A DNA stretch of 64,000 nucleotides from a phage, in sequence record PZ543597.1; one strand, 5' to 3'. Position numbers and translations under genes: made by a program. The notes below the pieces were generated by a model. That model had not been told where the DNA came from. It did no database searches and was given only the letters and a program-made list of their open reading frames with translations. Every line of letters begins with the position of its first letter. The first letter of the stretch is position 1. Shown piece by piece: positions 20,386-52,581 of the stretch.

Positions 20386-20414
20386 TTTACATAGGGTTTT
20401 AGTTGTGATACTAT
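20386..20414 (+). promoter_or_regulatory. T4-type early promoter (-35 TTTACA, 17-bp spacer, -10 TACTAT)
   Basis: Preceded by ttcacaaagttg; a 7-bp inverted repeat atagggt/accctat brackets the spacer and -10. Confidence 0.65.
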
Positions 20415-20448
20415 TACCCTATCAAAACAAAACCAAATGGAAATCAAA

Positions 20449-20682
20449 ATGAAAACTTACCAAGAATTTATTGCTGAAACTGCTGATGTAAAAGTTGAGT
20501 TTATTTACACTGGCAAGAAAGATAAAATGGGTGAAATGCCTCATGGAGTTCTTCGTGATGCATTAGATAATTTCGGTCAACTCGCCGCAGAAGATTACGG
20601 TGATAAAATTGTTGTTACTGGTCCTGCTGCAGTTATTGAAAAATGGGCAGCAGAAAATAAATCAATTTTTCGTAAAAAATAA
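20449..20682 (+). CDS. internal-protein-like gene with capsid targeting sequence (ipI locus)
   Basis: Begins MKTYQEFIAE, the T-even capsid targeting sequence cleaved by the prohead protease; the rest of the 77-aa protein does not match T4 IpI as recalled. Confidence 0.6.
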   Translation: MKTYQEFIAETADVKVEFIYTGKKDKMGEMPHGVLRDALDNFGQLAAEDYGDKIVVTGPAAVIEKWAAENKSIFRKK

Positions 20683-20683
20683 G

Positions 20684-20712
20684 TTTACTTTTAGATAGGG
20701 TAGTGATACTAT
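20684..20712 (+). promoter_or_regulatory. T4-type early promoter with embedded stem-loop
   Basis: -35 TTTACT, 17-bp spacer, -10 TACTAT; 9-bp inverted repeat gatagggta/taccctatc (20694-20721) with the -10 in its loop. Confidence 0.65.
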
Positions 20713-20740
20713 TACCCTATCTACTACTGAGGAGAATAAA

Positions 20741-20926
20741 ATGAAACGTTGTGAATTAATTCGAAATGTTGCTATTGCAATTTCTGCTTCCGCTTTTAGT
20801 TTTTCAATGTTTGTTGGATTTATATGTGGATTATTGACTACAGCAGAAAATGTGTTTTCACTTGTAGTAGCATTTTTAATTGGTTTAATTGCTATTGTTA
20901 TGGATAAAATTTCTAAAGGTGAATAA
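20741..20926 (+). CDS. small hydrophobic membrane protein
   Basis: 61-aa ORF with two hydrophobic segments and an RBS (gaggag). Confidence 0.5.
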   Translation: MKRCELIRNVAIAISASAFSFSMFVGFICGLLTTAENVFSLVVAFLIGLIAIVMDKISKGE

Positions 20927-21324
20927 TGAACGTTGAATATTATGTATATGCGGATTACGAAAATAATCCGTCTAAAGATGAAGATAATCGTTTAGGTGTA
21001 GATGCTTTCGATTCCCCTGCGGCGGCATGGCAATGGGTTGAAAGAACCGATATTCCTTACCGTTATATTGAAGTGGTTGACCACGCAGGAAACAAGTATC
21101 CTAAGGAAGCATATGTTGCTTCCGGGAAGGTAAATTTCCTTTTGTTTGCAGGTGATAATTATTATCCCCGTGGTGGGTATACCGATTTAATTGCTAAAGC
21201 ATTCTCTGAAGATGAACTCCGTGACATTATCAAAGAAAATGAAAACAAACCGATGGATTCTAATCGCTTTGATTGGTGGCAAATCGTAAATGCTAATACT
21301 CACACTATTGTTGATGAAGGCTGA
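20926..21324 (+). CDS. hypothetical protein
   Basis: 132-aa ORF with ATGA overlap to the upstream gene; phage-like composition. Confidence 0.55.
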   Translation: MNVEYYVYADYENNPSKDEDNRLGVDAFDSPAAAWQWVERTDIPYRYIEVVDHAGNKYPKEAYVASGKVNFLLFAGDNYYPRGGYTDLIAKAFSEDELRDIIKENENKPMDSNRFDWWQIVNANTHTIVDEG

Positions 21325-21326
21325 TA

Positions 21327-21614
21327 ATGATTCTTTATGCGAAAGTATCATCCATTGAAAATGGATATAAATATGATCAAGACGCGGCTAAAGCTTTGAT
21401 TGATGATTATGGCATTTTAACATGTTTTGAAGTTGAAAAGGTTTACATTGACCGTTCATCTTCTCAAGTTAAATTAGTGAAGGAAGAACGTAAATTTAAT
21501 ACAGTAAATTTTGATTTCTTTATTGAAACAGAAAAAGGTCCTCTTGAATATGATATTTTCAAGAATCCTTTGGGTCTTGAATGCATCGTAAATATGTATT
21601 ATTATAAATGGTAA
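21327..21614 (+). CDS. hypothetical protein
   Basis: 95-aa ORF abutting the upstream gene. Confidence 0.5.
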   Translation: MILYAKVSSIENGYKYDQDAAKALIDDYGILTCFEVEKVYIDRSSSQVKLVKEERKFNTVNFDFFIETEKGPLEYDIFKNPLGLECIVNMYYYKW

Positions 21615-21711: not shown

Positions 21712-21784
21712 TGGGAATTAGCCAAGTTGGTAAGGCACTGGATTTTGATTCCAGGATGCAAAGGTTCGAGTCCTTTATTCCCAG
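21712..21784 (+). tRNA. tRNA-Gln: tRNA-Gln (anticodon UUG)
   Basis: Manual cloverleaf: acceptor tgggaat/attccca, anticodon loop ttTTGat, T-loop ttcgagt. Confidence 0.85.
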
Positions 21785-21785
21785 C

Positions 21786-21872
21786 GCGAGAATGGCCAAA
21801 TTGGTAAAGGCACAGCACTTAAAATGCTGCGGAATGATTTCCTTGTGGGTTCGAGTCCCACTTCTCGCACCA
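21786..21872 (+). tRNA. tRNA-Leu: tRNA-Leu (anticodon UAA), class II, CCA encoded
   Basis: Acceptor gcgagaa/ttctcgc, anticodon loop ctTAAaa, long variable arm, 3' CCA. Confidence 0.85.
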
Positions 21873-21877
21873 AATTT

Positions 21878-21951
<74 letters not shown>

Positions 21952-21961
21952 ATTTAATTTA

Positions 21962-22035
21962 CTCCGTGTAGCTCAGTTTGGTAGAGCGTCTGCTTTGGGA
22001 GCAGAATGTCGTAGGTTCAAATCCTGCCACGGAGA
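21962..22035 (+). tRNA. tRNA-Pro: tRNA-Pro (anticodon UGG)
   Basis: Acceptor ctccgtg/cacggag, anticodon stem tctgc/gcaga, loop ttTGGga. Confidence 0.85.
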
Positions 22036-22037
22036 CT

Positions 22038-22127
22038 GGAGGCGTGGCAGAGTGGTTTAATGCACCGGTCTTGAAAATCGGCAGTCGCTCCGGCGACTCA
22101 TAGGTTCAAATCCTATCGCCTCCGCCA
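22038..22127 (+). tRNA. tRNA-Ser: tRNA-Ser (anticodon UGA), class II
   Basis: Acceptor ggaggcg/cgcctcc, anticodon loop ctTGAaa, long variable arm, 3' CCA. Confidence 0.85.
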
Positions 22128-22132
22128 GTTTT

Positions 22133-22208
22133 GCTGATTTAGCTCAGTAGGTAGAGCAACTCACTTGTAATGAGAAGGTCGGCGGTTCGATTCCGTCAAT
22201 CAGCACCA
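22133..22208 (+). tRNA. tRNA-Thr: tRNA-Thr (anticodon UGU)
   Basis: Acceptor gctgatt/aatcagc, anticodon loop ctTGTaa, 3' CCA. Confidence 0.85.
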
Positions 22209-22209
22209 A

Positions 22210-22284
22210 GGCCCTGTAGCTGGAAGGTTCAAGCAAGCGACTCATAATCGCCAGATGGTGGTTCAATTCCACCCAGGGCCACCA
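22210..22284 (+). tRNA. tRNA-Ile: tRNA with anticodon CAU (Ile by analogy with T4, where the wobble C is modified; Met not excluded)
   Basis: Acceptor ggccctg/cagggcc, anticodon loop ctCATaa, 3' CCA. Confidence 0.75.
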
Positions 22285-22293
22285 AATTAATTT

Positions 22294-22380
22294 GGGGAGT
22301 TATCCCGTAGAGGTAGCGGTGTGGACTGTAAATCCATTGTCATTGCGACTCGGGTGGTTCGACTCCACCACTCCCCACCA
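22294..22380 (+). tRNA. tRNA-Tyr: tRNA-Tyr (anticodon GUA), class II; not among the eight T4 tRNAs
   Basis: Acceptor ggggagt/actcccc, anticodon stem gtgga/tccat with loop ctGTAaa, 15-nt variable arm, T-arm ggtgg-ttcgact-ccacc, 3' CCA. Confidence 0.7.
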
Positions 22381-22384
22381 ATTT

Positions 22385-22459
22385 GGATGTGTAGCTCAAT
22401 GGCAGAGCGATCGCCTGTTAAGCGATTGGTTATAGGTTCGAATCCTATCACGTCCGCCA
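22385..22459 (+). tRNA. tRNA-Asn: tRNA-Asn (anticodon GUU); not among the eight T4 tRNAs
   Basis: Acceptor ggatgtg/cacgtcc (one G-U), anticodon stem atcgc/gcgat with loop ctGTTaa, T-loop ttcgaat, 3' CCA. Confidence 0.7.
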
Positions 22460-22573
22460 AATTTGTGACAACTGTCACATTAATATCTACTTGACGCGAT
22501 TATAGGGGTTGAACTGATCACTCTTCTCTTAATTTCGTGTGAAGACATCTTGATTGTTGGAGTAGGTATTAAT

Positions 22574-22649
22574 GTGGCCGTAGTTCAGTTGGTAGAACTC
22601 GAGATTGTGATTCTCGTAGTCATGGGTTCGACTCCCATCGGTCACCCCA
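22574..22649 (+). tRNA. tRNA-His: tRNA-His (anticodon GUG); not among the eight T4 tRNAs
   Basis: Acceptor gtggccg/cggtcac, D-stem gttc/gaac, anticodon stem cgaga/tctcg with loop ttGTGat, T-loop ttcgact, 3' CCA. Confidence 0.7.
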
Positions 22650-22653
22650 ATTA

Positions 22654-22729
22654 CGGGGCATAGCTCAGAAGGAAGAGCAAGGACCTTCTAAGTCCTAGGT
22701 CGTAGGTTCGATCCCTACTGCCTCGACCA
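22654..22729 (+). tRNA. tRNA-Arg: tRNA-Arg (anticodon UCU)
   Basis: Acceptor cggggca/tgcctcg, anticodon stem aggac/gtcct with loop ctTCTaa, T-loop ttcgatc, 3' CCA. Confidence 0.85.
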
Positions 22730-23099: not shown

Positions 23100-23434
23100 A
23101 AACCGGGTCGCTACCGGTAAGTCGTCGGACTGATGTTCCCTGGAGTATAGTTTCCTCCCACAGTTTTACTGTGTTCTGGCTCTTTACTATCACAGCAGAA
23201 ACGGCGCACCGAATTATCGATTCGAGGAAATATCTTTGCCGTAAGCCGAGTAGCGTTTTTGACGGAACGTTCGGATATGGTCGAGATATGGCCTTTTAAA
23301 AATATTGAGTAGCGTCAACTACTTAATAACCGGGTTCGAATCCCGGCGTTTCGTACAAACACTTGCCTTAGCAGGTGGAACCCCGACAAGGTTGCCGCAA
23401 GGCTTAGCCCCGACCGAAAGGTTGGGGCTTTTTG
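23100..23434 (+). ncRNA. GC-rich structured non-coding segment, possible stable RNA (compare T4 rnaC/rnaD)
   Basis: About 330 nt with no ORF on either strand except a spurious N-terminal extension; GC content clearly above the local phage average; contains a tRNA-like T-arm ccggg-ttcgaat-cccgg and several hairpins; ends in an intrinsic terminator. Confidence 0.3.
23406..23434 (+). terminator. intrinsic terminator (copy 1 of a repeated hairpin)
   Basis: agccccgaccgaaaggttggggc followed by ttttt; identical to 23963-23990. Confidence 0.7.
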
Positions 23435-23435
23435 G

Positions 23436-23443
23436 TATAAATA
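23436..23443 (+). promoter_or_regulatory. T4-type late promoter (TATAAATA) for the downstream capsid-targeting-sequence gene
   Basis: Exact TATAAATA immediately 3' of the terminator hairpin, 39 nt upstream of the ATG at 23482. Confidence 0.55.
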
Positions 23444-23481
23444 TTAGTATATTAAATCTACAAATTAAAACAGGAAATAAG

Positions 23482-23955
23482 ATGAAATCATATACTCAAT
23501 TTTTAAATGAAGCGGTGTTAAATGAAGCATCTAGCACCGAAATTCAAGCTGTTGCAAAAGCTGCCATTGCCGCGGGTAAATATTCCTATAAAGATGCTTC
23601 TGATGAATCGCGATTCCAGTTTGCACGCGACATGAAAGCGGAAGGATTTACGGGAAATGCAGTTAGTATGGCCTGGAAAAGTTTAGTTGCTACTGGCGCT
23701 GCTTTTGCAAAGGCTTCGGGTAAACCTGCTCCTAAAGCAGATCCTAAAGCGGCACAAGAAAAAAATATCGTTAAAGGAATTATCGCTAAATATGAAGCTA
23801 TCCTTAAAGAGCTTTTAGTAATCAAAACCGAAGGCCAAAAGTTAGCCCGTGCTTATAGTTTCAAAGATAATCCACATGTTCACTCTCTTGAGTATGTTGA
23901 AGACATCCAAAAAATTATTAAAGACCGCATTTGGTCTGCTAAACAAATCAAATGA
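23482..23955 (+). CDS. internal-protein-like gene with capsid targeting sequence
   Basis: Starts MKSYTQFLNEA with RBS caggaaa; Ala/Lys-rich 157-aa product. The track ORF 23305-23955 extends upstream through a terminator hairpin and is rejected as the start. Confidence 0.6.
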   Translation: MKSYTQFLNEAVLNEASSTEIQAVAKAAIAAGKYSYKDASDESRFQFARDMKAEGFTGNAVSMAWKSLVATGAAFAKASGKPAPKADPKAAQEKNIVKGIIAKYEAILKELLVIKTEGQKLARAYSFKDNPHVHSLEYVEDIQKIIKDRIWSAKQIK

Positions 23956-23962
23956 CATTCTT

Positions 23963-23990
23963 AGCCCCGACCGAAAGGTTGGGGCTTTTT
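23963..23990 (+). terminator. intrinsic terminator (copy 2 of the repeated hairpin)
   Basis: Same agccccgaccgaaaggttggggc hairpin plus ttttt, directly after the stop at 23955. Confidence 0.7.
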
Positions 23991-24080
23991 AGTTTGAATC
24001 ACTCGGATAACGCTGTTACGGATAGTAACAAAGTAATAAATAATTAATAACCAACCGATAAATTATTTCAAGGATTTTAA

Positions 24081-24644
24081 ATGAAAACCTATGCCGAATT
24101 TTTAACCGAAGCAGCAAAATTACCATCTGAAGCAGATCTTACTAAAGTATTCTTCCAATTGGACCCAAAAGACCGCGGCGATTTTCTTAAGTGGAAAGCT
24201 AAAGCTATTGAAATGTACAACATCGATAATAGTTCTTTTACAATGAGTCAAGAAAATAAATTCAATAAAGCATTTTTCAAAATTTCTAAGAAATTGGCAT
24301 CTGGCGCTCAGGTTCCTAAATCTGTGTTAGCTACTCCTGAACGCGCACCTGTTAAAATTTCTAAGAATATGTTCGACACTAAAAAATACGTTAATGCTTT
24401 GAATAAAGCTCTTGATGCATTGGATGATGCAAAGAAGGCAGCCCGCGATCTTCAAGACGTGTACACCGATTTTGACCGCAAAACTAAAGGTTCTATTTCA
24501 AATAGCGAACGCAATAGTGTAAGTGTTTATTCTGATAGCCTTGATGTTCTTGGCGATGCGTATACTGAAATTAAAAATCGTATTAACACTGCATCTAAGC
24601 TAAAAGCTGCTGCAGAAGCTATAATAAGTAAACTAGGTAAATAA
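24081..24644 (+). CDS. internal-protein-like gene with capsid targeting sequence
   Basis: 187-aa ORF starting MKTYAEFLTEA with RBS aaggat; basic and Ala-rich, similar in size to T4 IpIII. Confidence 0.6.
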   Translation: MKTYAEFLTEAAKLPSEADLTKVFFQLDPKDRGDFLKWKAKAIEMYNIDNSSFTMSQENKFNKAFFKISKKLASGAQVPKSVLATPERAPVKISKNMFDTKKYVNALNKALDALDDAKKAARDLQDVYTDFDRKTKGSISNSERNSVSVYSDSLDVLGDAYTEIKNRINTASKLKAAAEAIISKLGK

Positions 24645-24651
24645 TTTTAAA

Positions 24652-24677
24652 TCCCTATCTAAATGATAGGGCTTTTT
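24652..24677 (+). terminator. intrinsic terminator
   Basis: Hairpin ccctatc-taaat-gataggg followed by ctttttgg. Confidence 0.6.
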
Positions 24678-24810
24678 GGTATCTAGGCCTTTCTGGACCT
24701 CTCTAGGCATCATTTAGTTTCTACCCTTTATAATATATTATCCTATCCTTTAACTGCCCCTTCCCTCCCTAGAATTCCCTAAAACTTTTTAAAATTTTTT
24801 CACAAAACTG

Positions 24811-24839
24811 TTTACATCCCCGTTCTTCCATGGTACTAT
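24811..24839 (+). promoter_or_regulatory. T4-type early promoter
   Basis: A/T-rich upstream region with ttcacaaaactg, -35 TTTACA, 17-bp spacer, -10 TACTAT. Confidence 0.65.
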
Positions 24840-24883: not shown

Positions 24884-25147
24884 ATGGATAATTACGGCGA
24901 ACTGTTCAACTTCTTTATGAAATGCGTTTCAGAAGATTTCGGTCGTACAGTGAATGATATTAAAGTTATCGGTCCTGATCATCCGATGTTTGAAACTTAC
25001 GCAGTAATGGGTAATGAAGACGGTCAGTGGTATACTGTAAAAGTTGTGATTAACATGTTCACAGCAGAAGGTTATGTTAAACTGTCTTCTAAAGTTTATC
25101 ATGACAACGACGAAATCGCAGAAGAATATTTCAATAATATGAAATAA
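24884..25147 (+). CDS. hypothetical acidic protein
   Basis: 87 aa from an ATG preceded by ggagaatgaa; the track ORF begins further upstream inside the promoter. Confidence 0.5.
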   Translation: MDNYGELFNFFMKCVSEDFGRTVNDIKVIGPDHPMFETYAVMGNEDGQWYTVKVVINMFTAEGYVKLSSKVYHDNDEIAEEYFNNMK

Positions 25148-25148
25148 G

Positions 25149-25177
25149 TTTACACAGGCTCATGATTGAGATATTAT
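25149..25177 (+). promoter_or_regulatory. T4-type early promoter with embedded stem-loop
   Basis: -35 TTTACA, 17-bp spacer, -10 TATTAT; inverted repeat ggctcat/atgagcc brackets the -10. Confidence 0.6.
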
Positions 25178-25202
25178 GAGCCTATAATTTGAGGAAAATA
25201 TT

Positions 25203-25538
25203 ATGAAACGTAACTTTAGCAAAGATTTTTGCAATAGAAATGATTACCCTGAAGAGCTTTTTGAATCTAAGGACTTTAAAGAGTTTAATGAACGTTCTCA
25301 AAACATACCTGTACAATGGGTGTTAGATTATGCCAATCGTATCTTTGAAGGTGTGCGGGATATTTGTCCTGATGATGAAGCTCCTTATTTTAAAAAGGCT
25401 TGGGAACTCGCCAATCAAGCATATATCAATGCTTCAGAATCTTATAAAGGTACTGACGACGATTTTATTTTACTGGCTATTAACGATGCCATTGTCGAGT
25501 CCATCAACGTCTTTATCGACGAGCTAGACGAAGAATAA
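25203..25538 (+). CDS. hypothetical protein
   Basis: 111-aa ORF with RBS gaggaaaat. Confidence 0.55.
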   Translation: MKRNFSKDFCNRNDYPEELFESKDFKEFNERSQNIPVQWVLDYANRIFEGVRDICPDDEAPYFKKAWELANQAYINASESYKGTDDDFILLAINDAIVESINVFIDELDEE

Positions 25539-25539
25539 G

Positions 25540-25568
25540 TTTACAATCTATTAAAAACGTGATATTAT
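25540..25568 (+). promoter_or_regulatory. T4-type early promoter
   Basis: -35 TTTACA, 17-bp spacer, -10 TATTAT. Confidence 0.6.
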
Positions 25569-25595
25569 CTAATTGTATCAATCTAAGGAAATACT

Positions 25596-26189
25596 ATGAA
25601 CACACTGAAGAAAATTGTTGAGTTTATTCGCACTAAACTTGGTTCTGCTATGGCTAAAAATCTATCTGTTGAAGAACAGTATACTGCTGCAGCAGCAAAA
25701 CTACTTGATAAAATTAAAGATCTAAAAACTGCTTCTATTAAATCTATTAATGAAGAAAAACGTATTCGTGAACTTGTTATCGAAAAGAATCGACAGGCCG
25801 AATCAAAAGAGCGTGAAATTCGTAAACTTCTTTCCGAAGGTCAAGATGTAACAATGCATGCTAAACTCGGTTTACTATATCGCCGAACAGCTGAGCAGTT
25901 GACTACTAAAGCTGACGGTTATGCTGAAATGCGAATTGAAATCGCCAAGAAAGTAGTTGAGTTAGATGATGCTCGTCAAGAACTTGCAGTTAAATTGGAA
26001 TATATCCGTGAAACTCGTGCAGCAAATGCCCTTGGAATTAGTACTGCCGATGATGTAGTTGAAATCGCAGCGCTGACTAAGGTTGATATTGAAGATACCC
26101 TTGCTCGAGTTGAAACCTTTAACGGTAATATTTCCGGGGTTGAAACTACCTCTGCCGATGTCCAGGAATATATTAATTCTCTGAAATAA
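25596..26189 (+). CDS. hypothetical coiled-coil protein
   Basis: 197-aa ORF with RBS aaggaaa; predicted mostly helical with heptad character. Confidence 0.55.
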
Positions 26190-29266: not shown

Positions 29267-29270
29267 TGTT

Positions 29271-29299
29271 TACTTCCTCCAAGGACTTTGATACTATAC
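29271..29299 (+). promoter_or_regulatory. T4-type early promoter upstream of denV
   Basis: -35 TTTACT, 17-bp spacer, -10 TACTAT. Confidence 0.6.
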
Positions 29300-31879: not shown

Positions 31880-31882
31880 CTG

Positions 31883-31911
31883 TTTACTTTTCCTCTTGAC
31901 TGTGGTATAAT
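31883..31911 (+). promoter_or_regulatory. T4-type early promoter upstream of regB
   Basis: -35 TTTACT, 17-bp spacer, TG-extended -10 TATAAT. Confidence 0.7.
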
Positions 31912-36077: not shown

Positions 36078-36088
36078 CATTTTACCGG

Positions 36089-36117
36089 TTTACTTTCCAT
36101 TTGAGCTGTGATACTAT
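36089..36117 (+). promoter_or_regulatory. T4-type early promoter
   Basis: -35 TTTACT, 17-bp spacer, -10 TACTAT followed by acaactatc. Confidence 0.65.
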
Positions 36118-36897: not shown

Positions 36898-36900
36898 TGG

Positions 36901-36929
36901 TTTACAAGTTGGCAAGATTATGATATAGT
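36901..36929 (+). promoter_or_regulatory. T4-type early promoter with 13-bp embedded stem-loop
   Basis: -35 TTTACA, 17-bp spacer, -10 TATAGT; inverted repeat gttggcaagatta/taatcttgtcaac encloses the -10. Confidence 0.6.
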
Positions 36930-39652: not shown

Positions 39653-39675
39653 TTCAAAAATTTTTCACAAAATTG

Positions 39676-39704
39676 TTTACAAGCATAAAGCTTTATGGTA
39701 CTAT
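39676..39704 (+). promoter_or_regulatory. T4-type early promoter
   Basis: ttcacaaaattg upstream, -35 TTTACA, 17-bp spacer containing the palindrome ataaagctttat, -10 TACTAT. Confidence 0.65.
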
Positions 39705-39741
39705 ACAACTATCAAAACAAACACTTAAACGGAAAAACAAA

Positions 39742-39891
39742 ATGAAAATTACACCAATTGAAGTAAAAAAGTTGATTGACACAGAAGAAATTTCAGAGTG
39801 TTTTGAAAGTTTCTTAGAAGATGCAACTGAAGATAATGCAGTTTATCTCGCTCAGAAAATTATCGAAACTTATTTGGAGAAGAATCAATGA
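39742..39891 (+). CDS. hypothetical small acidic protein
   Basis: 49 aa from an ATG after aaaacaaa; the track ORF starts upstream inside the promoter. Confidence 0.4.
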   Translation: MKITPIEVKKLIDTEEISECFESFLEDATEDNAVYLAQKIIETYLEKNQ

Positions 39892-40151
39892 CAGTTTACG
39901 TAGATGTTTTAATGAATCATGGATGGAAACTTCGCGGTCATCCAACTAAAAATTGTCATATGTTCACTGATGGAGATATTGAAGAGCTTCATGAAATGGC
40001 AGAAGCAATAGGAATGAAACGTTCTTGGTTTCAAGATAAACGCATTAAACATTATGACTTACACGCTCGCCGACGCCAAAAAGCTGTAGAACTTGGAGCT
40101 GTAGAAGTATCTCGCCGTGAAGCAGTAAAAATTTGGCGAACGTTAAAATAA
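39888..40151 (+). CDS. DUF4031-like small protein
   Basis: 87 aa, MTVYVDVLMNHGWKLRGHPTKNCHMFTDGDIEELHEMAEAIGMKRSWFQDKRIKHYDL...; recalled as matching the DUF4031 family pattern. Confidence 0.45.
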   Translation: MTVYVDVLMNHGWKLRGHPTKNCHMFTDGDIEELHEMAEAIGMKRSWFQDKRIKHYDLHARRRQKAVELGAVEVSRREAVKIWRTLK

Positions 40152-40155
40152 ATTG

Positions 40156-40184
40156 TTTACAGAAGGGTAGTAGTGTGATACTAT
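40156..40184 (+). promoter_or_regulatory. T4-type early promoter with embedded inverted repeat
   Basis: -35 TTTACA, 17-bp spacer, -10 TACTAT; 27-nt tract gtgatactattaccctatcaaaacaaa is identical to 20405-20431. Confidence 0.65.
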
Positions 40185-40220
40185 TACCCTATCAAAACAA
40201 ATGTGAGATTGGAGAATAAA

Positions 40221-41189: not shown

Positions 41190-41278
41190 TTCATAAGAGG
41201 ACTTCTATGACAAAAAGGCAGTTCAGAAATAGATTATATGGACTGCCATTAAAAAGATAACTAGAATTAAACTGGTGA

Positions 41279-41593: not shown

Positions 41594-41596
41594 TGG

Positions 41597-41625
41597 TTTA
41601 CAAGACTGTTCCTCTGTGGTATTAT
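41597..41625 (+). promoter_or_regulatory. T4-type early promoter inside an RBS-sequestering stem-loop
   Basis: -35 TTTACA, 17-bp spacer, -10 TATTAT; 9-bp arms ctgttcctc (41606-41614) and gaggaacag (41642-41650), the latter being the RBS of the gene at 41654. Confidence 0.6.
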
Positions 41626-43548: not shown

Positions 43549-44577
43549 ATGAAAACTCGTTCTCAAATTGAAGATATGGTTCGTAATGCCAGCTATACTC
43601 GTGATGTTATGACATTTTTGTGTGAAAATAATTTAGACCCTGATAAAGTTAATCGTGTTATTCATCACTTTAAGTATACGAATAGCAGTGAATGGGTGCG
43701 TAATTTTAGTAAAGCAGGGTATATTACACAAATGACTGCTCGTGAACAGCTCACCGATTTCTGTAAAACTATTGATTATAAAAATCCTTTGATTGTTCAA
43801 GGCGTTGGTCAAAGTAAGGTCGATTTATCATCTGGATTTTTCAATCCAAATCATTATCGTATTGAATGGAGATTTATTGCTCTATTCCGTAAACAATTAA
43901 AGCAAATTTTGTCTACTGCTAGTCGATTAAAAGGCTCTGATATTAACTTAAAGAACCTGAAATTTGATGGTTATACTCTTCAGATGGAAGTAAGACCGTT
44001 AAAAGAAAATAATAGAACTGCACGAATTAGCTTTAAGCCTAATACTAAAAATTCTCTTTCAATTTGTGAATGTCTTAAATCACAGCTGACAGAAGCATTT
44101 AAGTATATGGATGTTGTTGCTGCTGTTCAATCTAAGATTTTACCTCGTTTTGAGCGAAATTGGGAACATACAACAACATATGAACTTGATATGATCGTTT
44201 CATTTAAATATGAATTTTTGAGAAAGGATGAAATTGTTCAAGAGAAAAAGCAGGAAGTGCAAGATACCTTAAATTTAAATTTATCCAATTACTTATCAAA
44301 CGATCCTAAATGTTGGATGTACAGTTCAAGTAACATAGATGCATGTAAACTTAATAAAGTGAGTTTTCTTCCTACTGAAAATTCAAATTTTAAACCTGTA
44401 GAAAAATGGCACGCTGATGCGATTGAAAAGTCTCTTAAGGCAGTAGATGATGAACTCGTTAAAGCGACCAATGAAATGCTAGAAGCTGAAAAGGCGTTAG
44501 AACAAGCTCAGTCAAGGGTTCAAAATCTGACAAAGCAACGTTCTAAACTGAACAATGCACTAAATGCACTGAACTAG
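43549..44577 (+). CDS. paralogue-array protein 2
   Basis: 342 aa; motif ASRLKGSDINLKNLKF; C-terminal coiled coil ...AEKALEQAQSRVQNLTKQRSKLNNALNALN. Confidence 0.55.
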   Translation: MKTRSQIEDMVRNASYTRDVMTFLCENNLDPDKVNRVIHHFKYTNSSEWVRNFSKAGYITQMTAREQLTDFCKTIDYKNPLIVQGVGQSKVDLSSGFFNPNHYRIEWRFIALFRKQLKQILSTASRLKGSDINLKNLKFDGYTLQMEVRPLKENNRTARISFKPNTKNSLSICECLKSQLTEAFKYMDVVAAVQSKILPRFERNWEHTTTYELDMIVSFKYEFLRKDEIVQEKKQEVQDTLNLNLSNYLSNDPKCWMYSSSNIDACKLNKVSFLPTENSNFKPVEKWHADAIEKSLKAVDDELVKATNEMLEAEKALEQAQSRVQNLTKQRSKLNNALNALN

Positions 44578-44606
44578 TTTACTTTGCCACAAGGATGTGG
44601 TATAAT
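44578..44606 (+). promoter_or_regulatory. T4-type early promoter overlapping the 3' end of the upstream gene
   Basis: -35 TTTACT, 17-bp spacer, TG-extended -10 TATAAT. Confidence 0.6.
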
Positions 44607-44634
44607 GTTCTTACTTTCTACTGAGGAGATTATT

Positions 44635-45636
44635 ATGACTCGTAACGAATATATCAAATCATTCAATAGCGTTATTGATGATAAAGCTATACCGATGTTT
44701 GGCCAAAATAGCGTTCTTTCTATTATCAATCAATGGCTCAATAGTGTTGATGCAAGTATTGTTTCTTCTACTAAATTTATTCATGAAATTCGTAAAATTT
44801 CTAGCCGTGTAGATAAAGATGTTATCAAGAAAACCTTTAAAGAGTCTCGTCTTCTTTCATATTTGGTTAATCGGGATATTCTTGGTAATTTTGGGAAAGA
44901 AATTAAACGAACCAAAGATGTAGTAGGATATAATTGGTTCGGTGATGTTAATTCTTATCATCTTAATAATAAAGAAGACCCTGAGAATATTTTTACTCGT
45001 CGTTGGATTAGTAATTTCAGACTTTTCAAAGGACAGATTCTAAAATCAGCTTCTAAATTATGTTATGGCGATTATCGTCAAATTCATCCTTTGGCTTCTG
45101 ATATGATTATCATAAAAGAATATGAACTTGATAAAAATAAAGTATCTATTTTTGTGAATTATGGATTTTTTACACCAGAAACTAACCAAAAGAATATTAA
45201 TAAATTTTTCTCAATTGCTAGCACTATAACTCGTCAATTAGAGACCGCATTACTTTGTATGGAAACAGTAGAAAATATTCATACATATCCTTTTAAGAAT
45301 ATATGCGGTTGGGAAGGATATAAACTCGTAATTAGCCTTCGTGAAGTGAAATGTGCTTATTCACCTACTGATAAAGAAATTTACCAACAAAAATGTGATG
45401 AAATTGTGAATACTCCTAAAGAAGAAACTACCCTTGAGGAACTAATGGAATGTCTTGATGATTCACCTGAACCGATAGAAATTCGTCCAGAAGTTATTGC
45501 ACTAGAAAAAGCTTATAAAGAAGTTCTAGAAATTTCTAATAAAGCGCAGAAAGAATATGAGCAGGCTAAAAGGATTTGGGAAGAATCTGTTAATCGTCTT
45601 GATCGTCTGGAACAAGCTTTACAGTTAATTAAGTAA
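44635..45636 (+). CDS. paralogue-array protein 3
   Basis: 333 aa from ATG after gaggag; motifs SRLLSY and ASKLCYGDYRQ; C-terminal coiled coil. Confidence 0.55.
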   Translation: MTRNEYIKSFNSVIDDKAIPMFGQNSVLSIINQWLNSVDASIVSSTKFIHEIRKISSRVDKDVIKKTFKESRLLSYLVNRDILGNFGKEIKRTKDVVGYNWFGDVNSYHLNNKEDPENIFTRRWISNFRLFKGQILKSASKLCYGDYRQIHPLASDMIIIKEYELDKNKVSIFVNYGFFTPETNQKNINKFFSIASTITRQLETALLCMETVENIHTYPFKNICGWEGYKLVISLREVKCAYSPTDKEIYQQKCDEIVNTPKEETTLEELMECLDDSPEPIEIRPEVIALEKAYKEVLEISNKAQKEYEQAKRIWEESVNRLDRLEQALQLIK

Positions 45637-47725: not shown

Positions 47726-47896
47726 ATGATTTACGATATTAATGTAGCAAGAACTCCATCAATGGTTACTATTCCAGCTGAAGAATTAGATCGTCTTCAT
47801 AAAATTGAAGAACTTCTTTGGGAAATTGAATCTGATTTGCCATCAGGACTAGAATCCTGGATTGATTATGAAGAACTTAATAAGCTTCGGGGTTAA
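47726..47896 (+). CDS. hypothetical small acidic protein
   Basis: 56 aa from ATG 47726. Confidence 0.4.
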   Translation: MIYDINVARTPSMVTIPAEELDRLHKIEELLWEIESDLPSGLESWIDYEELNKLRG

Positions 47897-48018
47897 ACCT
47901 TGGTGGGCGGTTAGATGGGAAACTGTAGAGCCAGAGCCGGAAGAACCGGTTTACACTGATGAAGAAACAGTATATAATGAACCTACAATAAATGACTTAA
48001 TTGATATGGAGATGGGAC

Positions 48019-48504
48019 ATGATTACAGTAGATAAGTGGTTTAGAATTAATCGTGTTGATACAGGGCTATGTAATTACTGGCCGGAACTTAGTGCAGGTA
48101 CTGTCTTTAAAGTTCGTGAACTTGCAAAAGAATGCGAAGATGATATAGAACCTGATACTGGAATTATTGAAATTGAACTTTCCGACGGAAAGATTATTAA
48201 CATCTATGATAAGCCAATTACATACTGGTGTTTGTGGAATACTGAATCCGTTGAAAATGGCGAAATTGAAGAAGTTGTAGAGAGAACTAGCCAAGATGTT
48301 CAGAAGCCTAAAGCCGCTTTTCAAGGTGAACGTATTTCATACGCATTAGCTAAATTAGCTGCGCAAGAAAATAACGATGGCTATGAAGGTAACCTGATGC
48401 AAGCTGCCGCAGAGTACATTGAATGGCTTGAAACTCAAATTTCTTTTTCTGACCAAAAGATTCGGCAATATAAGCGATTGCATCAAATGTTTTACAATAC
48501 TTGA
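48019..48504 (+). CDS. hypothetical protein at the T4 pin position (possible Lon-protease inhibitor homologue)
   Basis: 161 aa from ATG after ggagatggga; same length as T4 Pin and located between nrdC and gene 49; the assignment is by position and size only. Confidence 0.4.
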   Translation: MITVDKWFRINRVDTGLCNYWPELSAGTVFKVRELAKECEDDIEPDTGIIEIELSDGKIINIYDKPITYWCLWNTESVENGEIEEVVERTSQDVQKPKAAFQGERISYALAKLAAQENNDGYEGNLMQAAAEYIEWLETQISFSDQKIRQYKRLHQMFYNT

Positions 48505-48759: not shown

Positions 48760-49233
48760 ATGTTATTGACTGGCAAATTATATAAAGAAGAAAAACAGAA
48801 ATTTTATGATGCGCAAAACGGTAAATGCTTAATTTGCCAACGAGAACTAAATCCTGATGTTCAAGCTAATCATCTTGATCATGACCATGAATTAAATGGA
48901 CCAAAAGCAGGAAAGGTACGTGGATTGCTTTGTAATCTATGCAATGCCGCAGAAGGTCAAATGAAGCATAAATTTAATCGTTCTGGCTTAAAGGGACAAG
49001 GTGTTGATTATCTTGAATGGTTAGAAAATTTACTTACTTATTTAAAATCCGATTACACCCAAAATAATATTCACCCTAACTTTGTTGGAGATAAATCAAA
49101 GGAATTTTCTCGTTTAGGAAAAGAGGAAATGATGGCCGAGATGCTTCAAAGAGGATTTGAATATAATGAATCTGACACTAAAACACAATTAATAGCTTCA
49201 TTTAAGAAGCAGCTTAGAAAGAGTTTAAAATGA
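48760..49233 (+). CDS. 49: endonuclease VII (Holliday-junction resolvase)
   Basis: 157-aa ORF MLLTGKLYKEEKQKFYDAQNGKCLICQREL...; matches T4 gp49 as recalled. Confidence 0.95.
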   Translation: MLLTGKLYKEEKQKFYDAQNGKCLICQRELNPDVQANHLDHDHELNGPKAGKVRGLLCNLCNAAEGQMKHKFNRSGLKGQGVDYLEWLENLLTYLKSDYTQNNIHPNFVGDKSKEFSRLGKEEMMAEMLQRGFEYNESDTKTQLIASFKKQLRKSLK

Positions 49234-51047
49234 CAATTGAAAAAGAAATTGAAGGATTGATTCATAAAACTAATAAAGACCTTTTGAACGAGAATGCTAA
49301 TAAAGATTCTCGTGTTTTTCCAACTCAACGGGACCTTATGGCTGGTATTGTGTCTAAACACATTGCCAAAAATATGGTCCCGTCTTTTATTATGAAAGCG
49401 CATGAAAGCGGAATTATTCATTTTCATGATATTGATTATTCCCCTGCTCTTCCATTTACTAATTGCTGTTTAGTAGATTTAAAAGGAATGCTTGAGAACG
49501 GATTTAAGCTCGGTAATGCACAGATTGAAACTCCTAAATCAATTGGCGTTGCTACTGCAATTATGGCACAAATTACTGCACAGGTTGCTTCTCATCAATA
49601 TGGCGGAACGACTTTTGCGAATGTAGATAAAGTCCTTTCTCCTTATGTTAAACGCACCTACGCAAAACACATTGAGGATGCAGAAAAATGGCAAATCGCT
49701 GATGCATTGAATTATGCCCAATCTAAAACAGAAAAAGACGTATACGATGCATTCCAAGCTTATGAATATGAAGTAAATACTCTCTTTAGTTCAAACGGAC
49801 AAACGCCTTTTGTAACAATTACATTTGGTACGGGAACTGACTGGACTGAACGAATGATTCAGAAAGCAATTCTGAAAAATCGTATTAAAGGTCTCGGTCG
49901 TGATGGGATAACTCCTATTTTCCCTAAGCTTGTTATGTTTGTTGAAGAAGGTGTTAATCTTTATAAAGACGATCCGAACTATGATATTAAGCAGCTTGCT
50001 CTAGAGTGTGCAAGCAAAAGAATGTATCCTGACATCATTTCGGCTAAGAACAATAAAGCTATCACAGGTTCATCTATTCCTGTTTCTCCAATGGGTTGCC
50101 GTAGTTTCTTGGGTGTATGGAAAGATTCGACTGGTAATGAAATTCTTGATGGACGTAATAATCTTGGTGTTGTAACACTGAATCTTCCTCGTATTGCATT
50201 AGATTCTTATATTGGAACACAGTTCAATGAACAGAAATTTGCCGAATTGTTCAATGAACGAATGGATTTATGTTTTGAAGCATTGATGTGTAGAATTAGT
50301 TCCTTAAAAGGAGTTAAAGCTACTGTTGCTCCTATTCTTTATCAAGAAGGTGCATTCGGGGTTCGTCTTAAACCTGATGACGATATAATTGAGTTATTTA
50401 AAAACGGTAGAAGTTCAGTGTCCCTAGGATACATTGGTATTCACGAATTGAATATTCTTGTCGGTCGTGATATTGGACAAGAAATTTTAACTAAAATGAA
50501 TACTCATCTTAAGCAGTGGACTGAAAGAACCGGTTTTGCTTTTAGCTTGTATTCTACTCCTGCGGAAAACCTGTGCTATCGCTTCTGTAAACTTGATACC
50601 GAAAAATATGGAAGTGTAAAAGATGTTACTGATAAAGGCTGGTACACTAATAGTTTCCATGTTTCAGTAGAAGAAAATATTACTCCGTTTGAAAAGATTT
50701 CTCGCGAAGCACCGTATCATTTCATTGCAACAGGTGGTCACATTTCTTATGTTGAACTTCCTGATATGAAAAATAACCTAAAAGGTCTTGAGGCTGTATG
50801 GGATTATGCCGCACAACATTTAGATTATTTTGGTGTTAATATGCCAGTAGATAAATGTTTTACGTGTGGAAGTACCCATGAAATGACTCCTACTGAAAAC
50901 GGATTTGTTTGTTCTATTTGTGGAGAAACTGATCCTAAAAAGATGAACACTATAAGAAGAACTTGTGGTTATTTGGGAAATCCGAACGAACGCGGATTTA
51001 ATCTTGGCAAAAATAAAGAAATCATGCATAGGGTTAAACACCAATGA
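49230..51047 (+). CDS. nrdD: anaerobic ribonucleoside-triphosphate reductase
   Basis: 605-aa uninterrupted ORF with C-terminal zinc ribbon and glycyl-radical motif RRTCGYLG. Confidence 0.95.
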   Translation: MTIEKEIEGLIHKTNKDLLNENANKDSRVFPTQRDLMAGIVSKHIAKNMVPSFIMKAHESGIIHFHDIDYSPALPFTNCCLVDLKGMLENGFKLGNAQIETPKSIGVATAIMAQITAQVASHQYGGTTFANVDKVLSPYVKRTYAKHIEDAEKWQIADALNYAQSKTEKDVYDAFQAYEYEVNTLFSSNGQTPFVTITFGTGTDWTERMIQKAILKNRIKGLGRDGITPIFPKLVMFVEEGVNLYKDDPNYDIKQLALECASKRMYPDIISAKNNKAITGSSIPVSPMGCRSFLGVWKDSTGNEILDGRNNLGVVTLNLPRIALDSYIGTQFNEQKFAELFNERMDLCFEALMCRISSLKGVKATVAPILYQEGAFGVRLKPDDDIIELFKNGRSSVSLGYIGIHELNILVGRDIGQEILTKMNTHLKQWTERTGFAFSLYSTPAENLCYRFCKLDTEKYGSVKDVTDKGWYTNSFHVSVEENITPFEKISREAPYHFIATGGHISYVELPDMKNNLKGLEAVWDYAAQHLDYFGVNMPVDKCFTCGSTHEMTPTENGFVCSICGETDPKKMNTIRRTCGYLGNPNERGFNLGKNKEIMHRVKHQ

Positions 51048-51514
51048 ATTACGATAGATTTTATCCCTGCGATTTTGTAAATGGCCCTGGATGCAGGGTC
51101 GTTCTTTTCGTTACAGGTTGTTTGCATAAATGTGAAGGGTGTTATAATAAATCAACATGGAATGCTAGAAATGGCGTTCCATTCACTGGTGAAACACTAG
51201 AACAATTAATTGAATGTTTGAATAATGATTATATAGAAGGATTAACTATAACTGGAGGAGACCCTCTTTATCCTGATAACCGAGATGATGTTCATTGCAT
51301 TGTTCAAACGGTAAAAAATCTTTATCCGAATAAAAGCATTTGGTTGTGGACAGGATATAAGTTTGAAGATATTAAACAACTAGAAATGCTTAAATATGTT
51401 GATGTTATTATTGATGGGAAGTATGAGAAAAATCTTCCGACCAAAAAGCTGTGGCGAGGTTCAGATAATCAGCGACTTTGGTCAAATACCGATGGGGTGT
51501 GGAAACATGATTAA
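51044..51514 (+). CDS. nrdG: anaerobic RNR activating enzyme (radical SAM)
   Basis: 156 aa with CLHKCEGC radical-SAM cysteine motif; ATGA-coupled to nrdD. Confidence 0.9.
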   Translation: MNYDRFYPCDFVNGPGCRVVLFVTGCLHKCEGCYNKSTWNARNGVPFTGETLEQLIECLNNDYIEGLTITGGDPLYPDNRDDVHCIVQTVKNLYPNKSIWLWTGYKFEDIKQLEMLKYVDVIIDGKYEKNLPTKKLWRGSDNQRLWSNTDGVWKHD

Positions 51515-51629
51515 ATTGAATTATATTATGGACACTATAAATGATATGATTTTTCATTTTGGTCCAGAATTTTATTCGCAATATAGTTTAGTGCTTATCA
51601 ATGCTTGGTTAATCAATTAAGGGTAAAAT

Positions 51630-51845
51630 ATGTATAAATTTCGTAAAGGTTTAGCTGATTTTCTTACAACTGTAACATTCTTTTTGTTTATGGCAGTTGG
51701 AGCTATTTTCCTTATTCCTTTTATTGTTATATTTTTCGTGATTAGTTTGATTTCTCCAGAAAAAGGACTGTCTTCTAGCGAGTTCAATGAGCGTCTGGAT
51801 AAAATTACTAACAAGCTGAATTCTGTTCTTGATAAAAAGGCTTAA
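51630..51845 (+). CDS. small membrane protein
   Basis: 71 aa with one long hydrophobic segment. Confidence 0.5.
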   Translation: MYKFRKGLADFLTTVTFFLFMAVGAIFLIPFIVIFFVISLISPEKGLSSSEFNERLDKITNKLNSVLDKKA

Positions 51846-51847
51846 TT

Positions 51848-52159
51848 ATGATTAGTTTTGAGCGGTATGTGGTAGAGAGTTGGAAAGGTTTTGATATGTT
51901 CGGTAATGACTATTATTTTTATGAATGTAGTCTAAATCCTAGTTTTTGGGCTGGGCGTGAACGAGAACTTGAAGAAATTAATAACCGTGCTGAATTGTTA
52001 GGTGAATTACCTACGGTTTATTTTACCTTTGATGCGTCTGGATTTGTTATCCAGGTTTATTTTCCTGAAGAAAATTCTGGCGATGATTCTGTTAACCCGC
52101 CATACTGGGCTTATCAAGGAATTATTTCTCGTGGAACAAAACTCGAACTTAAAGAATAA
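51848..52159 (+). CDS. hypothetical protein
   Basis: 103-aa ORF upstream of the glutaredoxin-like region. Confidence 0.5.
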   Translation: MISFERYVVESWKGFDMFGNDYYFYECSLNPSFWAGRERELEEINNRAELLGELPTVYFTFDASGFVIQVYFPEENSGDDSVNPPYWAYQGIISRGTKLELKE

Positions 52160-52160
52160 G

Positions 52161-52454
52161 ATTGAAGTCTATGGAATTCCAGATGAAGTAGGTCGTTGCC
52201 CTGGATGTCAATCAGTTACAAAACTTCTAAAGGAGCTCAATGCTCCTTTTACTTTCTATAAAGTTCTTACAAATAATGGTAAGATTGAGTATGATCGTCC
52301 ACTGATTGTATCTCTTGCTAAACGCGCTGGATTCACATCTCTTAACATTCGTTATCCAGTCATTTTCATCAATGATTCTAGACAAAAGAACATTAAACAC
52401 TTCAAAGAAACTCTCATTTCACTTGGATATGATAGAGATATCATAGAAGACTAA
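52161..52454 (+). CDS. glutaredoxin-like protein (NrdH-type redoxin), start codon unresolved
   Basis: KIEVYGIPDEVGRCPGCQSV... with CPGC motif; the reading frame has no in-frame ATG near the domain start; the first codon after the upstream stop is ATT at 52161. Confidence 0.5.
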   Translation: MEVYGIPDEVGRCPGCQSVTKLLKELNAPFTFYKVLTNNGKIEYDRPLIVSLAKRAGFTSLNIRYPVIFINDSRQKNIKHFKETLISLGYDRDIIED

Positions 52455-52552
52455 GACGGGCCCTCTGGGCCTTTCTTTCTCACATTCTGTATATTACCAT
52501 TCTAAGCATCATTCACTTCTTATCATTCCCTAAAATAATTTTCACAAAGTTG

Positions 52553-52581
52553 TTTACAAGAAGTTCAAACTGTGGTATTAT
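52553..52581 (+). promoter_or_regulatory. T4-type early promoter
   Basis: ttcacaaagttg upstream, -35 TTTACA, 17-bp spacer, -10 TATTAT. Confidence 0.65.

Follow-up and report, generated by a model that had tools for sequence, protein, structure and literature searches.

The DNA analysed here is a stretch of 64,000 nucleotides (nt) from phage sequence record PZ543597.1, referred to throughout, at its full length, as the window. It belongs to a Tequatrovirus, being 98.5% identical to phage DCP2, and many genomes of this genus share 95-98.5% identity with the region considered; among them are DCP2, ECO07P4, YUEEL01 and the Yersinia phages fPS-65 and ZN18. In terms of T4, the + strand of the window is the strand of the early genes, and the part from 20 to 53 kilobases (kb) is equivalent to T4 57B through gene 55.x. 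Within this span we identified a family of 14 candidate early promoters, each located on the early-gene strand directly 5' of a Shine-Dalgarno sequence and an ATG (Table 1).

The pattern TTTACW-N17-TAYWAT has 15 exact matches in the window, all of them on the + strand (starting at 20386, 20684, 24811, 25149, 25540, 29269, 31883, 36089, 39676, 40156, 41597, 44578, 47950, 52553 and 52998) and all directly preceded by a G, against a mean of 0.36 and a maximum of 4 in dinucleotide-preserving shuffles. A position matrix trained on 13 sites and scanned over both strands of the window returned those 13 together with 36901, which the strict pattern misses, and no further site; members of the family score 26-55 bits. 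The strict matches at 47950 and 52998 score below 12 bits on the matrix, have no TGn (the extended -10), and lie inside open reading frames (ORFs). The robust family consists of 14 sites, namely the strict matches other than these two, plus 36901. All 14 have G followed by TTTAC(A/T), a spacer of 17 base pairs (bp) and a -10 of the form TA(C/T)(T/A)(A/G)T, and 13 have TGn; the consensus columns from -45 to -37 are A/T-rich, so that an A-rich upstream region is followed by GTTTAC, TGn and the -10. Generic sigma-70 scans found no enrichment (90 sites in real compared with 77 in shuffled sequence, and 92 compared with 82), indicating that the signal is the specific T4 early motif. The strand bias extends to 60 related loci, which together with the window gave 331 hits on the gene strand and 4 on the opposite strand.

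A sequence-only reading of this DNA had proposed a family of 14 such elements between 20386 and 52581, a range that holds 14 of the 15 strict matches. The family is real and its size is right, although its membership is not quite the one proposed, as 36901 does not fit the strict pattern and 47950 is doubtful. The same reading had noted a 27-nt tract common to 20405-20431 and 40175-40201, that is, to the 20386 and 40156 promoters, and we found this identity to extend over 28 nt. It had also described an upstream motif, ttcacaaa(a/g)(c/t)tg, as often present, which was overstated: the exact motif (TTCACAAARYTG) precedes only four of the 14 sites (at 20374, 24799, 39664 and 52541). Three of the four inverted repeats that it placed around the -10 do bracket that box, with arms at 20692-20702 and 20713-20723 (11 nt, 100% complementary), 25156-25166 and 25173-25183 (11 nt, 91%), and 36907-36920 and 36929-36942 (14 nt, 93%). 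The fourth, at 39684-39695, is a mere 4-bp AAGC/GCTT stem lying within the spacer and not around the -10, and resembles shuffled sequence (z = -0.3).

The elements lie at junctions at which T4 has the same kind of element. The distance between the -35 and the ATG has a median of 57 nt in related loci, and GTTTAC often follows directly on the stop codon of the gene before it. With the matrix, spacer ignored, we identified 12-14 sites per genome at syntenic junctions in eight full-length relatives; phage T4T has 13, before ipI, trna.4, e.8, e.7, e.6, ipIII, regB, mobD.5, mobD.2, nrdC.10, nrdC.8, nrdC.4 and 55.6. For 11 of the 14 sites, the corresponding position in the GenBank record of Yersinia phage fPS-90 bears the label "predicted early promoter", and the same record annotates terminators directly upstream of two of them. 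The T4 records NC_000866 (RefSeq) and AF158101 (GenBank) contain no promoter features, and a literature search found no map of T4 transcription start sites made by differential RNA sequencing (dRNA-seq) or Cappable-seq. T4 early promoters have been described as UP/-35/TGn/-10 promoters (PMC2988021), with GTTTAC at -36 to -31 (PMC1524935), and the T4 regB promoter, to which the regB promoter of the window is identical in sequence, has been called "a typical early promoter" (PMC3014915).

We conclude that the 14 elements are very probably ordinary sigma-70 early promoters of a T4-like phage, located before small accessory genes, and that they may also act in RNA insulation and recombination; the sequence-only reading was correct in calling them T4-style early promoters. 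Their identity as promoters is drawn from sequence and orthology, and it is from this that we infer their activity, start sites and timing. Host RNA polymerase, with sigma-70, would read each promoter immediately after infection, without phage proteins. It would do so from an A/T-rich upstream region, GTTTAC, a 17-bp spacer, TGn and TAyyAT. The promoters lie in the non-essential region that extends from 57B to gene 55, each about 57 nt 5' of the initiation codon of a small early gene.

Table 1. Putative early promoters and associated features of the window. Promoters are named by their starts; dG, predicted free energy of folding; z, score relative to shuffles.
Feature	Position	Strand	Sequence features	Stem-loop or terminator	Relatives and breakpoints
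Early promoter 20386, internal-protein (Ip6-like) gene 20437-20682	20385..20414	+	TTCACAAAGTTG motif upstream; training site, 55 bits	Hairpin 20391-97/20416-22, dG -13.7, z -4.4, 3' arm ends ~+1; long imperfect palindrome 20383-20403/20410-20430	Nearly identical to T4 ipI/trna.4 promoter; annotated as early promoter in fPS-90
Early promoter 20684, trna.4 (20741-20926)	20683..20712	+	Motif, matrix; stop codon of upstream gene abuts GTTTAC	14-bp hairpin 20692-20705/20710-20723 around -10, dG -18.5, z -4.8, 3' arm ends ~+1	Compensatory changes relative to T4 57B/ipI promoter; breakpoints at 20683-20731
Early promoter 24811, e.8 (24884-25147)	24810..24839	+	TTCACAAAACTG motif; terminator 140 nt upstream	Terminator-like hairpin upstream at 24653-24671; weak spacer/Shine-Dalgarno hairpin, z -1.8	
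Early promoter 25149, e.7 (25203-25538)	25148..25177	+	Motif; sole member without TGn	Hairpin 25156-66/25173-83, dG -15.7, z -3.3, 3' arm ends ~+1	Left end of e.7 cassette, replaced or absent in DCP2, wV7, RB10 and teqskov
Early promoter 25540, e.6 (25596-26189)	25539..25568	+	Motif, matrix	Neither embedded hairpin (z +0.6) nor upstream terminator	Right end of e.7 cassette; breakpoint 25577-25585
Early promoter 29269, gene 29325-29741 at second internal-protein locus	29268..29297	+	Anti-Shine-Dalgarno sequence in spacer	Hairpin TTCCTCCAAG (29274-83) / CTTGGAGGAA (29312-21), dG -17.8, z -5.1, 3' arm is Shine-Dalgarno	Breakpoints at 29267, 29289 and 29333
Early promoter 31883, regB (31939-32400)	31882..31911	+	Anti-Shine-Dalgarno sequence in spacer	Hairpin ~31888-31905/31916-31934, dG -21.6, z -6.4, 3' arm is Shine-Dalgarno	In T6, e gene joined to regB at 28983/31881
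Early promoter 36089, mobD.5 (36146-36334)	36088..36117	+	Intrinsic terminator directly upstream	Terminator AGTCTCCTTCGGGAGACT plus T-run at 36055-36072; no embedded hairpin (z +0.6)	Terminator and promoter both annotated in fPS-90
Early promoter 36901, small ORF 36958-37062	36900..36929	+	Independent matrix hit, 28.8 bits; -10 TATAGT	15-bp hairpin 36907-21/36928-42, dG -19.6, z -5.6, 3' arm ends ~+1	Orthologue in L026 keeps stem through compensatory changes
Early promoter 39676, two-ORF cassette 39742-40151	39675..39704	+	TTCACAAAATTG motif; terminator directly upstream	Terminator GGGAGCCTTCGGGCTCCC plus T-run at 39626-39645	Breakpoint 39715 in 9 relatives
Early promoter 40156, nrdC.10 (40221-41189)	40155..40184	+	Right end of inserted cassette	Hairpin 40164-74/40180-90, dG -16.7, z -3.7, 3' arm ends ~+1	Breakpoint 40209 in 10 relatives
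Early promoter 41597, nrdC.8 (41654-42181)	41596..41625	+	Anti-Shine-Dalgarno sequence in spacer	Hairpin CTGTTCCTC.. (41606-20) / ..GAGGAACAG (41636-50), dG -23.2, z -5.9, 3' arm is Shine-Dalgarno	Conserved in all close relatives
Early promoter 44578, nrdC.4 (44634-45636)	44577..44606	+	Motif, matrix	Moderate stem 44585-44602, spacer into -10, dG -14.2, z -2.8	Present in 8/8 full-length relatives
Early promoter 52553, 55.6-like gene (52612-52794)	52552..52581	+	TTCACAAAGTTG motif; terminator 80 nt upstream	Terminator-like hairpin 52458-52472; no embedded hairpin (z -0.5)	Annotated in fPS-90
Insertion/deletion cassette	39716..40208	+	Leader, two small ORFs (39742-39891, 39888-40151), second promoter (40156)		
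Doubtful member 47950, GTTTACA-N17-TATAAT	47949..47978	+	Inside 49.1-like ORF 47862-48035, 40 nt 5' of pin start		
Strict match 52998, GTTTACA-N17-TATAAT	52997-53026	+	Inside 55.5-like ORF 52787-53080		

The leaders of the 20684, 24811, 29269, 40156, 41597 and 44578 promoters have the common form CTATCAACTAC(T/G)GAGGAG...AAAATG, with GGAG lying within the Shine-Dalgarno sequence. GGAG is the RegB cleavage motif of early mRNAs (PMC3014915), and may be the reason for part of the conserved downstream tract.

We investigated the folding of each element from the -35 to the ATG, with z taken relative to shuffles. Strong hairpins were identified in nine of the 14 promoters (z from -2.8 to -6.4), with the 5' arm located in the spacer in all nine. 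They include a class of five (20386, 20684, 25149, 36901 and 40156) in which the 3' arm ends at about +1 and the whole hairpin precedes the start site. In a second class the 3' arm is the Shine-Dalgarno sequence of the downstream gene (29269, 31883, 41597 and, weakly, 24811) and the 5' arm is an anti-Shine-Dalgarno sequence, such as TTCCTCCAAG paired with CTTGGAGGAA. An Rfam search of positions 20000-56000 returned transfer RNAs (tRNAs) only.

RNA made from the promoter itself, starting about 7 nt after the -10, would not contain the 5' arm, and the hairpin would accordingly form only in RNA that reads through from upstream. The predicted unpaired probability of the ribosome-binding site (RBS) in read-through compared with own-promoter RNA was 0.09 and 0.65 for e.8 (24884), 0.10 and 0.60 for the gene at 29325, 0.02 and 0.56 for regB (31939), and 0.00 and 0.66 for nrdC.8 (41654). 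An accessibility of 0.10 or less in read-through RNA was thus found for four of the 14 promoter-proximal genes, in contrast to one of 73 others (p=0.002).

That single occluded gene among the 73 without a proximal early promoter is gene 49 (48760-49233; unpaired probability 0.03). It is a documented case of RBS sequestration in T4, and acted as an unplanned positive control (PMC3014915).

Pairing between spacer and leader was also identified in related phages. For this purpose we used IMG/VR loci anchored on e.6 and nrdC.10, which are mostly from distant genera and served the covariation analysis, not the breakpoint analysis. In 289 distinct promoter contexts from related loci, mean dG was -13.7 for the real sequences and -9.3 after shuffling of the spacer only, and z fell below -3 in 40% of the contexts and in 26 of 70 promoter groups. 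In each of seven divergent lineages, the spacer of the regB promoter pairs with the Shine-Dalgarno region, by means of different sequences and registers. In 13 promoters selected for folding in one register, pairing was found in 90.7% of cells, and changes on both sides in 11 of 14 pairs. Their covariation score was 0.61; that of shuffles was 0.31, with none of 500 reaching the observed value, and that of slid partners was 0.12-0.27.

We additionally identified terminators upstream of certain promoters, two of them at 17-31 nt and two more at 80-140 nt. None of the four promoters with a canonical terminator within 170 nt upstream (24811, 36089, 39676 and 52553) has a strong embedded hairpin, whereas nine of the other ten do. 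Among 79 promoter groups, a hairpin was found in 1 of 11 with an upstream terminator and in 30 of 68 without one (p=0.04). The lack of embedded hairpins in terminator-bearing promoters suggests that hairpin and terminator are alternative ways to insulate a cassette, and this exclusivity is compatible with an insulating role of the embedded stems.

On these folding predictions, the built-in hairpins probably shield each gene from transcripts arriving from upstream. Taking folding, covariation and terminator exclusivity together, about two-thirds of the elements would act on RNA from upstream as well as serving as promoters. The spacer, which is free of sequence constraint for polymerase binding, would have been recruited as the 5' arm of a hairpin specific to read-through RNA. 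In the first class, a hairpin just after the upstream gene would close off or stabilise the upstream message. In the Shine-Dalgarno class, read-through RNA is predicted to be untranslatable for the gene concerned and own-promoter RNA to be translatable; regB, nrdC.8, e.8 and the gene at the internal-protein locus would be translated only from their own early promoters, and would fall silent after early-promoter shut-off even with continuing read-through. We tentatively propose, as a plausible though by no means assured model, that many early promoters of T4-like phages double as post-transcriptional insulators, with two classes of hairpin that are interchangeable with terminators, letting cassettes swap without disturbing their neighbours.

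Several points weigh against our overall explanation of the elements. Five of the 14 promoters have no significant hairpin, and the embedded hairpins have no U-tracts, and hence are not classical terminators. RNAalifold, applied to 12 regB promoters, found no common-column consensus structure, because the register of the stem differs between regB lineages, and the covariation score comes from sequences chosen for their register. The functions given to the hairpins are predictions by thermodynamic folding, and the tie of the promoters to mapped T4 start sites consists of sequence identity and one quoted case, regB.

Alternatively, the embedded hairpins might be terminators or attenuators of upstream transcription without any role in translation, as is proposed in the literature on promoter-early-stem-loop (PeSL) elements. 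One PeSL stem-loop of phage phi1 reduces downstream lacZ like a strong terminator (Arbiol et al. 2010, PMC2839356), and both the position of the hairpins just after the upstream stop codon and their mutual exclusion with canonical upstream terminators fit this explanation, which we consider possible but somewhat improbable. The lack of a U-tract after any of the embedded stems argues against classical termination. Furthermore, the 3' arm coincides exactly with the Shine-Dalgarno sequence in four promoters, a feature that is needless for termination and matches the arrangement at e, soc, 49 and I-TevI, and the accessibility scan found gene 49 as the sole comparable case among the 73 other genes.

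We investigated the relation of the promoters to rearrangements by comparing the window with 16 relatives of at least 93% identity, eight of which span about 45 kb and eight about 20 kb; three loci of 77-81% identity were left out. Collinear blastn matches were chained and every gap of at least 30 nt was recorded, and the gene map used for junctions was made automatically and then curated by hand (starts and ORFs in the tRNA cluster). In all, 60 distinct breakpoints were located between 17 and 56 kb, of which 13 fall in the promoter zones (-45 to +100 of the -35 start), compared with 5.2% expected by position (p=1e-5). In any case, 54 of the 60 breakpoints lie at gene junctions. Breakpoints were found at 9 of 14 promoter-bearing junctions and 36 of 83 others, an odds ratio of 2.0-3.2; this enrichment over other junctions is weak (Fisher p=0.05-0.18, varying with zone width and with the inclusion or exclusion of tRNA junctions), and it counts against a recombinational role. 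When only junctions with spacers of at least 40 nt are compared, 9 of 14 with promoters have a breakpoint against 9 of 19 others (p=0.27). There were 41 distinct segmental events, with both ends in promoter zones in 7 (at three loci), one end in 8 and neither in 26, and 2 of 10 point insertions are at promoters.

The cassettes with promoters at both ends are the internal-protein cassette (20437-20682), the e.7 cassette (25203-25538) and the two-ORF cassette (39742-40151), and the crossovers of all three lie in the common leader just 3' of the -10. Promoters and leaders constitute dispersed repeats in the same orientation, with 13-28 nt of exact identity, and would offer short patches of homology for cassette exchange. 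The cassette at 39716-40208 is absent from T4, T6, wV7, HP3, RB10 and others, where 11 nt replace its 493 nt, and is present at the same locus in 163 phage records. T4, T6 and wV7 have a single promoter before nrdC.10, identical to the 39676 promoter of the window through TACTATACAACTATCAA, and the junction lies in the common CTATCAA leader, just 3' of the -10.

At its promoter end (40139-40208), this cassette has 70 nt that match, at 87-91%, a promoter in the frd.2 region (at about 143-144 kb) of T4, RB32, PST and T2, indicating that early promoters form dispersed repeat sub-families.

The promoters are thus exchange points for a few cassettes and not general delimiters of modules. The claim of the sequence-only reading that the elements delimit accessory modules is partly supported: three cassettes are bounded by promoters at both ends and the excess of breakpoints over random positions holds, whereas more than half of the segmental events do not involve promoters and the excess over other junctions is slight. 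Most module boundaries here are ordinary gene junctions, insertions of homing endonucleases, tRNA genes and repeated terminators, and this calls for caution.

In a stronger form of this idea, the elements would be dedicated mobile regulatory cassettes, PeSLs in the strong sense, with the chief function of targeting the excision and insertion of ORF cassettes, perhaps with the assistance of proteins, by way of mini-circles, and would be the principal module boundaries. We consider this doubtful. It is true that the 7 events with both ends in promoters compare with 0.85 expected, that the crossovers occupy the interval from the -10 to the Shine-Dalgarno sequence, like those of published mini-circles, that the T4 ipI/trna.4 promoter fronts a different gene here, and that the 40156 promoter has its 70-nt copy in another plastic region of T4, RB32 and PST. 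However, these 7 events reduce to three loci, and 26 of the 41 segmental events and 8 of the 10 point insertions have no promoter end, many of them involving homing endonucleases, tRNA genes or repeated terminators. The stretches of exact identity that promoters share are short, the odds ratio relative to other junctions is only 2-3 and, for the long spacers compared above, it is not significant; the data imply no recombinase.

Boundaries away from promoters coincide with segB, mobD, seg-like genes, the nrdD intron, tRNA genes and repeated terminator hairpins. Eleven tRNA genes (Gln, Leu, Gly, Pro, Ser, Thr, Met, Tyr, Asn, His and Arg) lie at 21712-22729, where T4 has a cluster of eight that is split by segB; the cluster has a different content in almost every relative, and many of the non-promoter breakpoints lie within it. 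At 23398-24671 we identified two identical terminator hairpins (AGCCCCGACCGAAAGGTTGGGGCT, at 23406-23429 and 23963-23986) and a third hairpin at 24653-24671, flanking the ORFs 23482-23955 and 24081-24644. Relatives that lack one or both of these ORFs have junction overlaps of 20-30 nt, indicating deletion between the repeated terminators. Many further non-promoter breakpoints are accounted for by homing endonucleases or introns that relatives carry and the window phage does not, at 37063-37077, 37647-38610, 41170-41196, 49765 and 51022-51064; the elements concerned are mobD, a seg-like gene after nrdC.10, the I-TevII intron in nrdD, and mobC, segH and segD near nrdG. An extra nrdH-like gene (51848-52159) is located before nrdH, at 51830-52155, and is absent from T4T, DCP2, T6, RB10 and others, while wV7 appears to have a counterpart.

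The inverted repeats might also act in DNA, as operators at which a dimeric protein of the phage or the host would shut off the early promoters, and not as RNA hairpins. They are centred on or near the -10, and the mechanism of early-promoter shut-off in T4 is stated to be unknown (PMC2988021; PMC3014915). This is nevertheless very improbable. The arms are wholly different between promoters (AGGCTCAT, ATAGGGTA, GTTGGCAAGATTA and TTCCTCCAAG), evidence against an operator bound by one common protein; the centre of symmetry is not constant, with paired positions summing to 43, 44 or 49; G-U pairs are used; and the 3' arm in four promoters is the Shine-Dalgarno sequence, 20-25 nt 3' of the -10. 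What is conserved is the ability to pair, not the sequence.

Finally, although AT-rich phage DNA yields many weak sigma-70 look-alikes, at close to the counts of shuffled sequence in generic scans, we can rule out that the elements are chance matches or MotA-dependent middle promoters, since the specific motif occurs at about 40 times expectation on one strand only, the maximum matrix score in simulated sequence was 12.5 bits, no TGCTT MotA box was found in the spacers of the 14 members, all of which have GTTTAC at the -35, and fPS-90 has its middle promoters annotated at other positions.

For the two strict matches inside ORFs, at 47950 and 52998, neither TGn nor an UP region was identified. 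Relatives of 75-85% identity (75-81% in the case of 47950) keep GTTTAC and TATRAT, while third codon positions in the spacer vary. We tested whether a shared protein motif could be the source of both matches and found none, the two proteins being unrelated. The two sites may be internal promoters for pin and 55.4.

Compared with T4 early promoters (reviewed in Hinton 2010, PMC2988021), the elements described here show no essential difference. They have the same GTTTAC at -36 to -31, 17-bp spacer, TGn, TAnnnT -10 and A/T-rich upstream region, lie likewise ahead of early genes on the early strand, and occupy the same junctions (ipI, trna.4, e.8, e.7, e.6, the ipIII locus, regB, mobD.5, mobD.2, nrdC.10, nrdC.8, nrdC.4 and 55.6). 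The inserted cassette 39716-40208 gives the window phage one promoter more than T4, and the first promoter of the phage is followed by a different internal-protein gene. The latter agrees with the polymorphism of internal-protein loci among T-even phages (Repoila et al. 1994, as summarised in PMC2839356), in which phages exchange genes that lie near e and from 57B to trna.4, each flanked by early-promoter repeats; the breakpoints of the window at 20469-20485 and 20683-20731 follow the same pattern.

The resemblance to PeSL cassettes, which the sequence-only reading had noted, is correct. The motif is word for word the PeSL promoter consensus of the PST/T4 pair, TTTACW...N17...TAYWAT (Comeau, Arbiol and Krisch 2014, PMC4122927), and the finding is therefore already known; as stated, it re-discovers T4 early promoters and a published idea, and adds one more genome. 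PeSLs likewise occur in hyperplastic regions before small ORFs, with stem-loops upstream of, within or overlapping the promoter: Arbiol et al. (2010) described stem-loops between, overlapping or flanking the promoter boxes (PMC2839356). An early promoter with an adjacent or overlapping stem-loop is also what we find here, embedded in nine of the 14 and as an upstream terminator in four, with 25540 having neither. Some insertion/deletion events likewise end in elements on both sides, and Arbiol et al. placed the crossovers of mini-circles in the interval that separates the -10 from the Shine-Dalgarno sequence or ATG (PMC2839356). The three both-ended cassettes agree with the PeSL model; unlike in that model, most breakpoints in the window lie away from the elements, and most rearrangements occur without promoters. 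In PST, the PeSL stem-loop is just upstream of the promoter, whereas here an upstream terminator is found in 2-4 cases and a stem inside the promoter in nine. In addition, the PeSL papers regard the stems as terminators and never mention translation (PMC2839356, PMC4122927), in contrast to the four promoters here that pair their spacer with the Shine-Dalgarno sequence. If confirmed, the embedded hairpins would explain the independence of densely packed early cassettes.

Such promoter-embedded hairpins, above all the spacer/Shine-Dalgarno pairs, may have wider value, and their closest parallels are the RBS hairpins of e, soc, 49 and I-TevI (PMC3014915). In both systems the promoter lies in or 5' of the 5' arm, and the Shine-Dalgarno sequence or AUG is part of the 3' arm; the site is occluded in long transcripts, and those from the proximal promoter are translatable, which for the genes of the window is a prediction; and the accessibility scan that flags four genes here also flags gene 49. 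The early-promoter/Shine-Dalgarno pairing is at most a variant of these known themes. It differs in that the proximal promoter of e, soc, 49 and I-TevI is late (TATAAATA), delaying translation to the late period, whereas here it is of the early type, with GTTTAC, TGn and -10. An early promoter in this position would instead restrict translation to the first minutes, and, if confirmed, the spacer/Shine-Dalgarno hairpins would explain how translation, for instance of regB, is coupled to the short lifetime of the early promoters.

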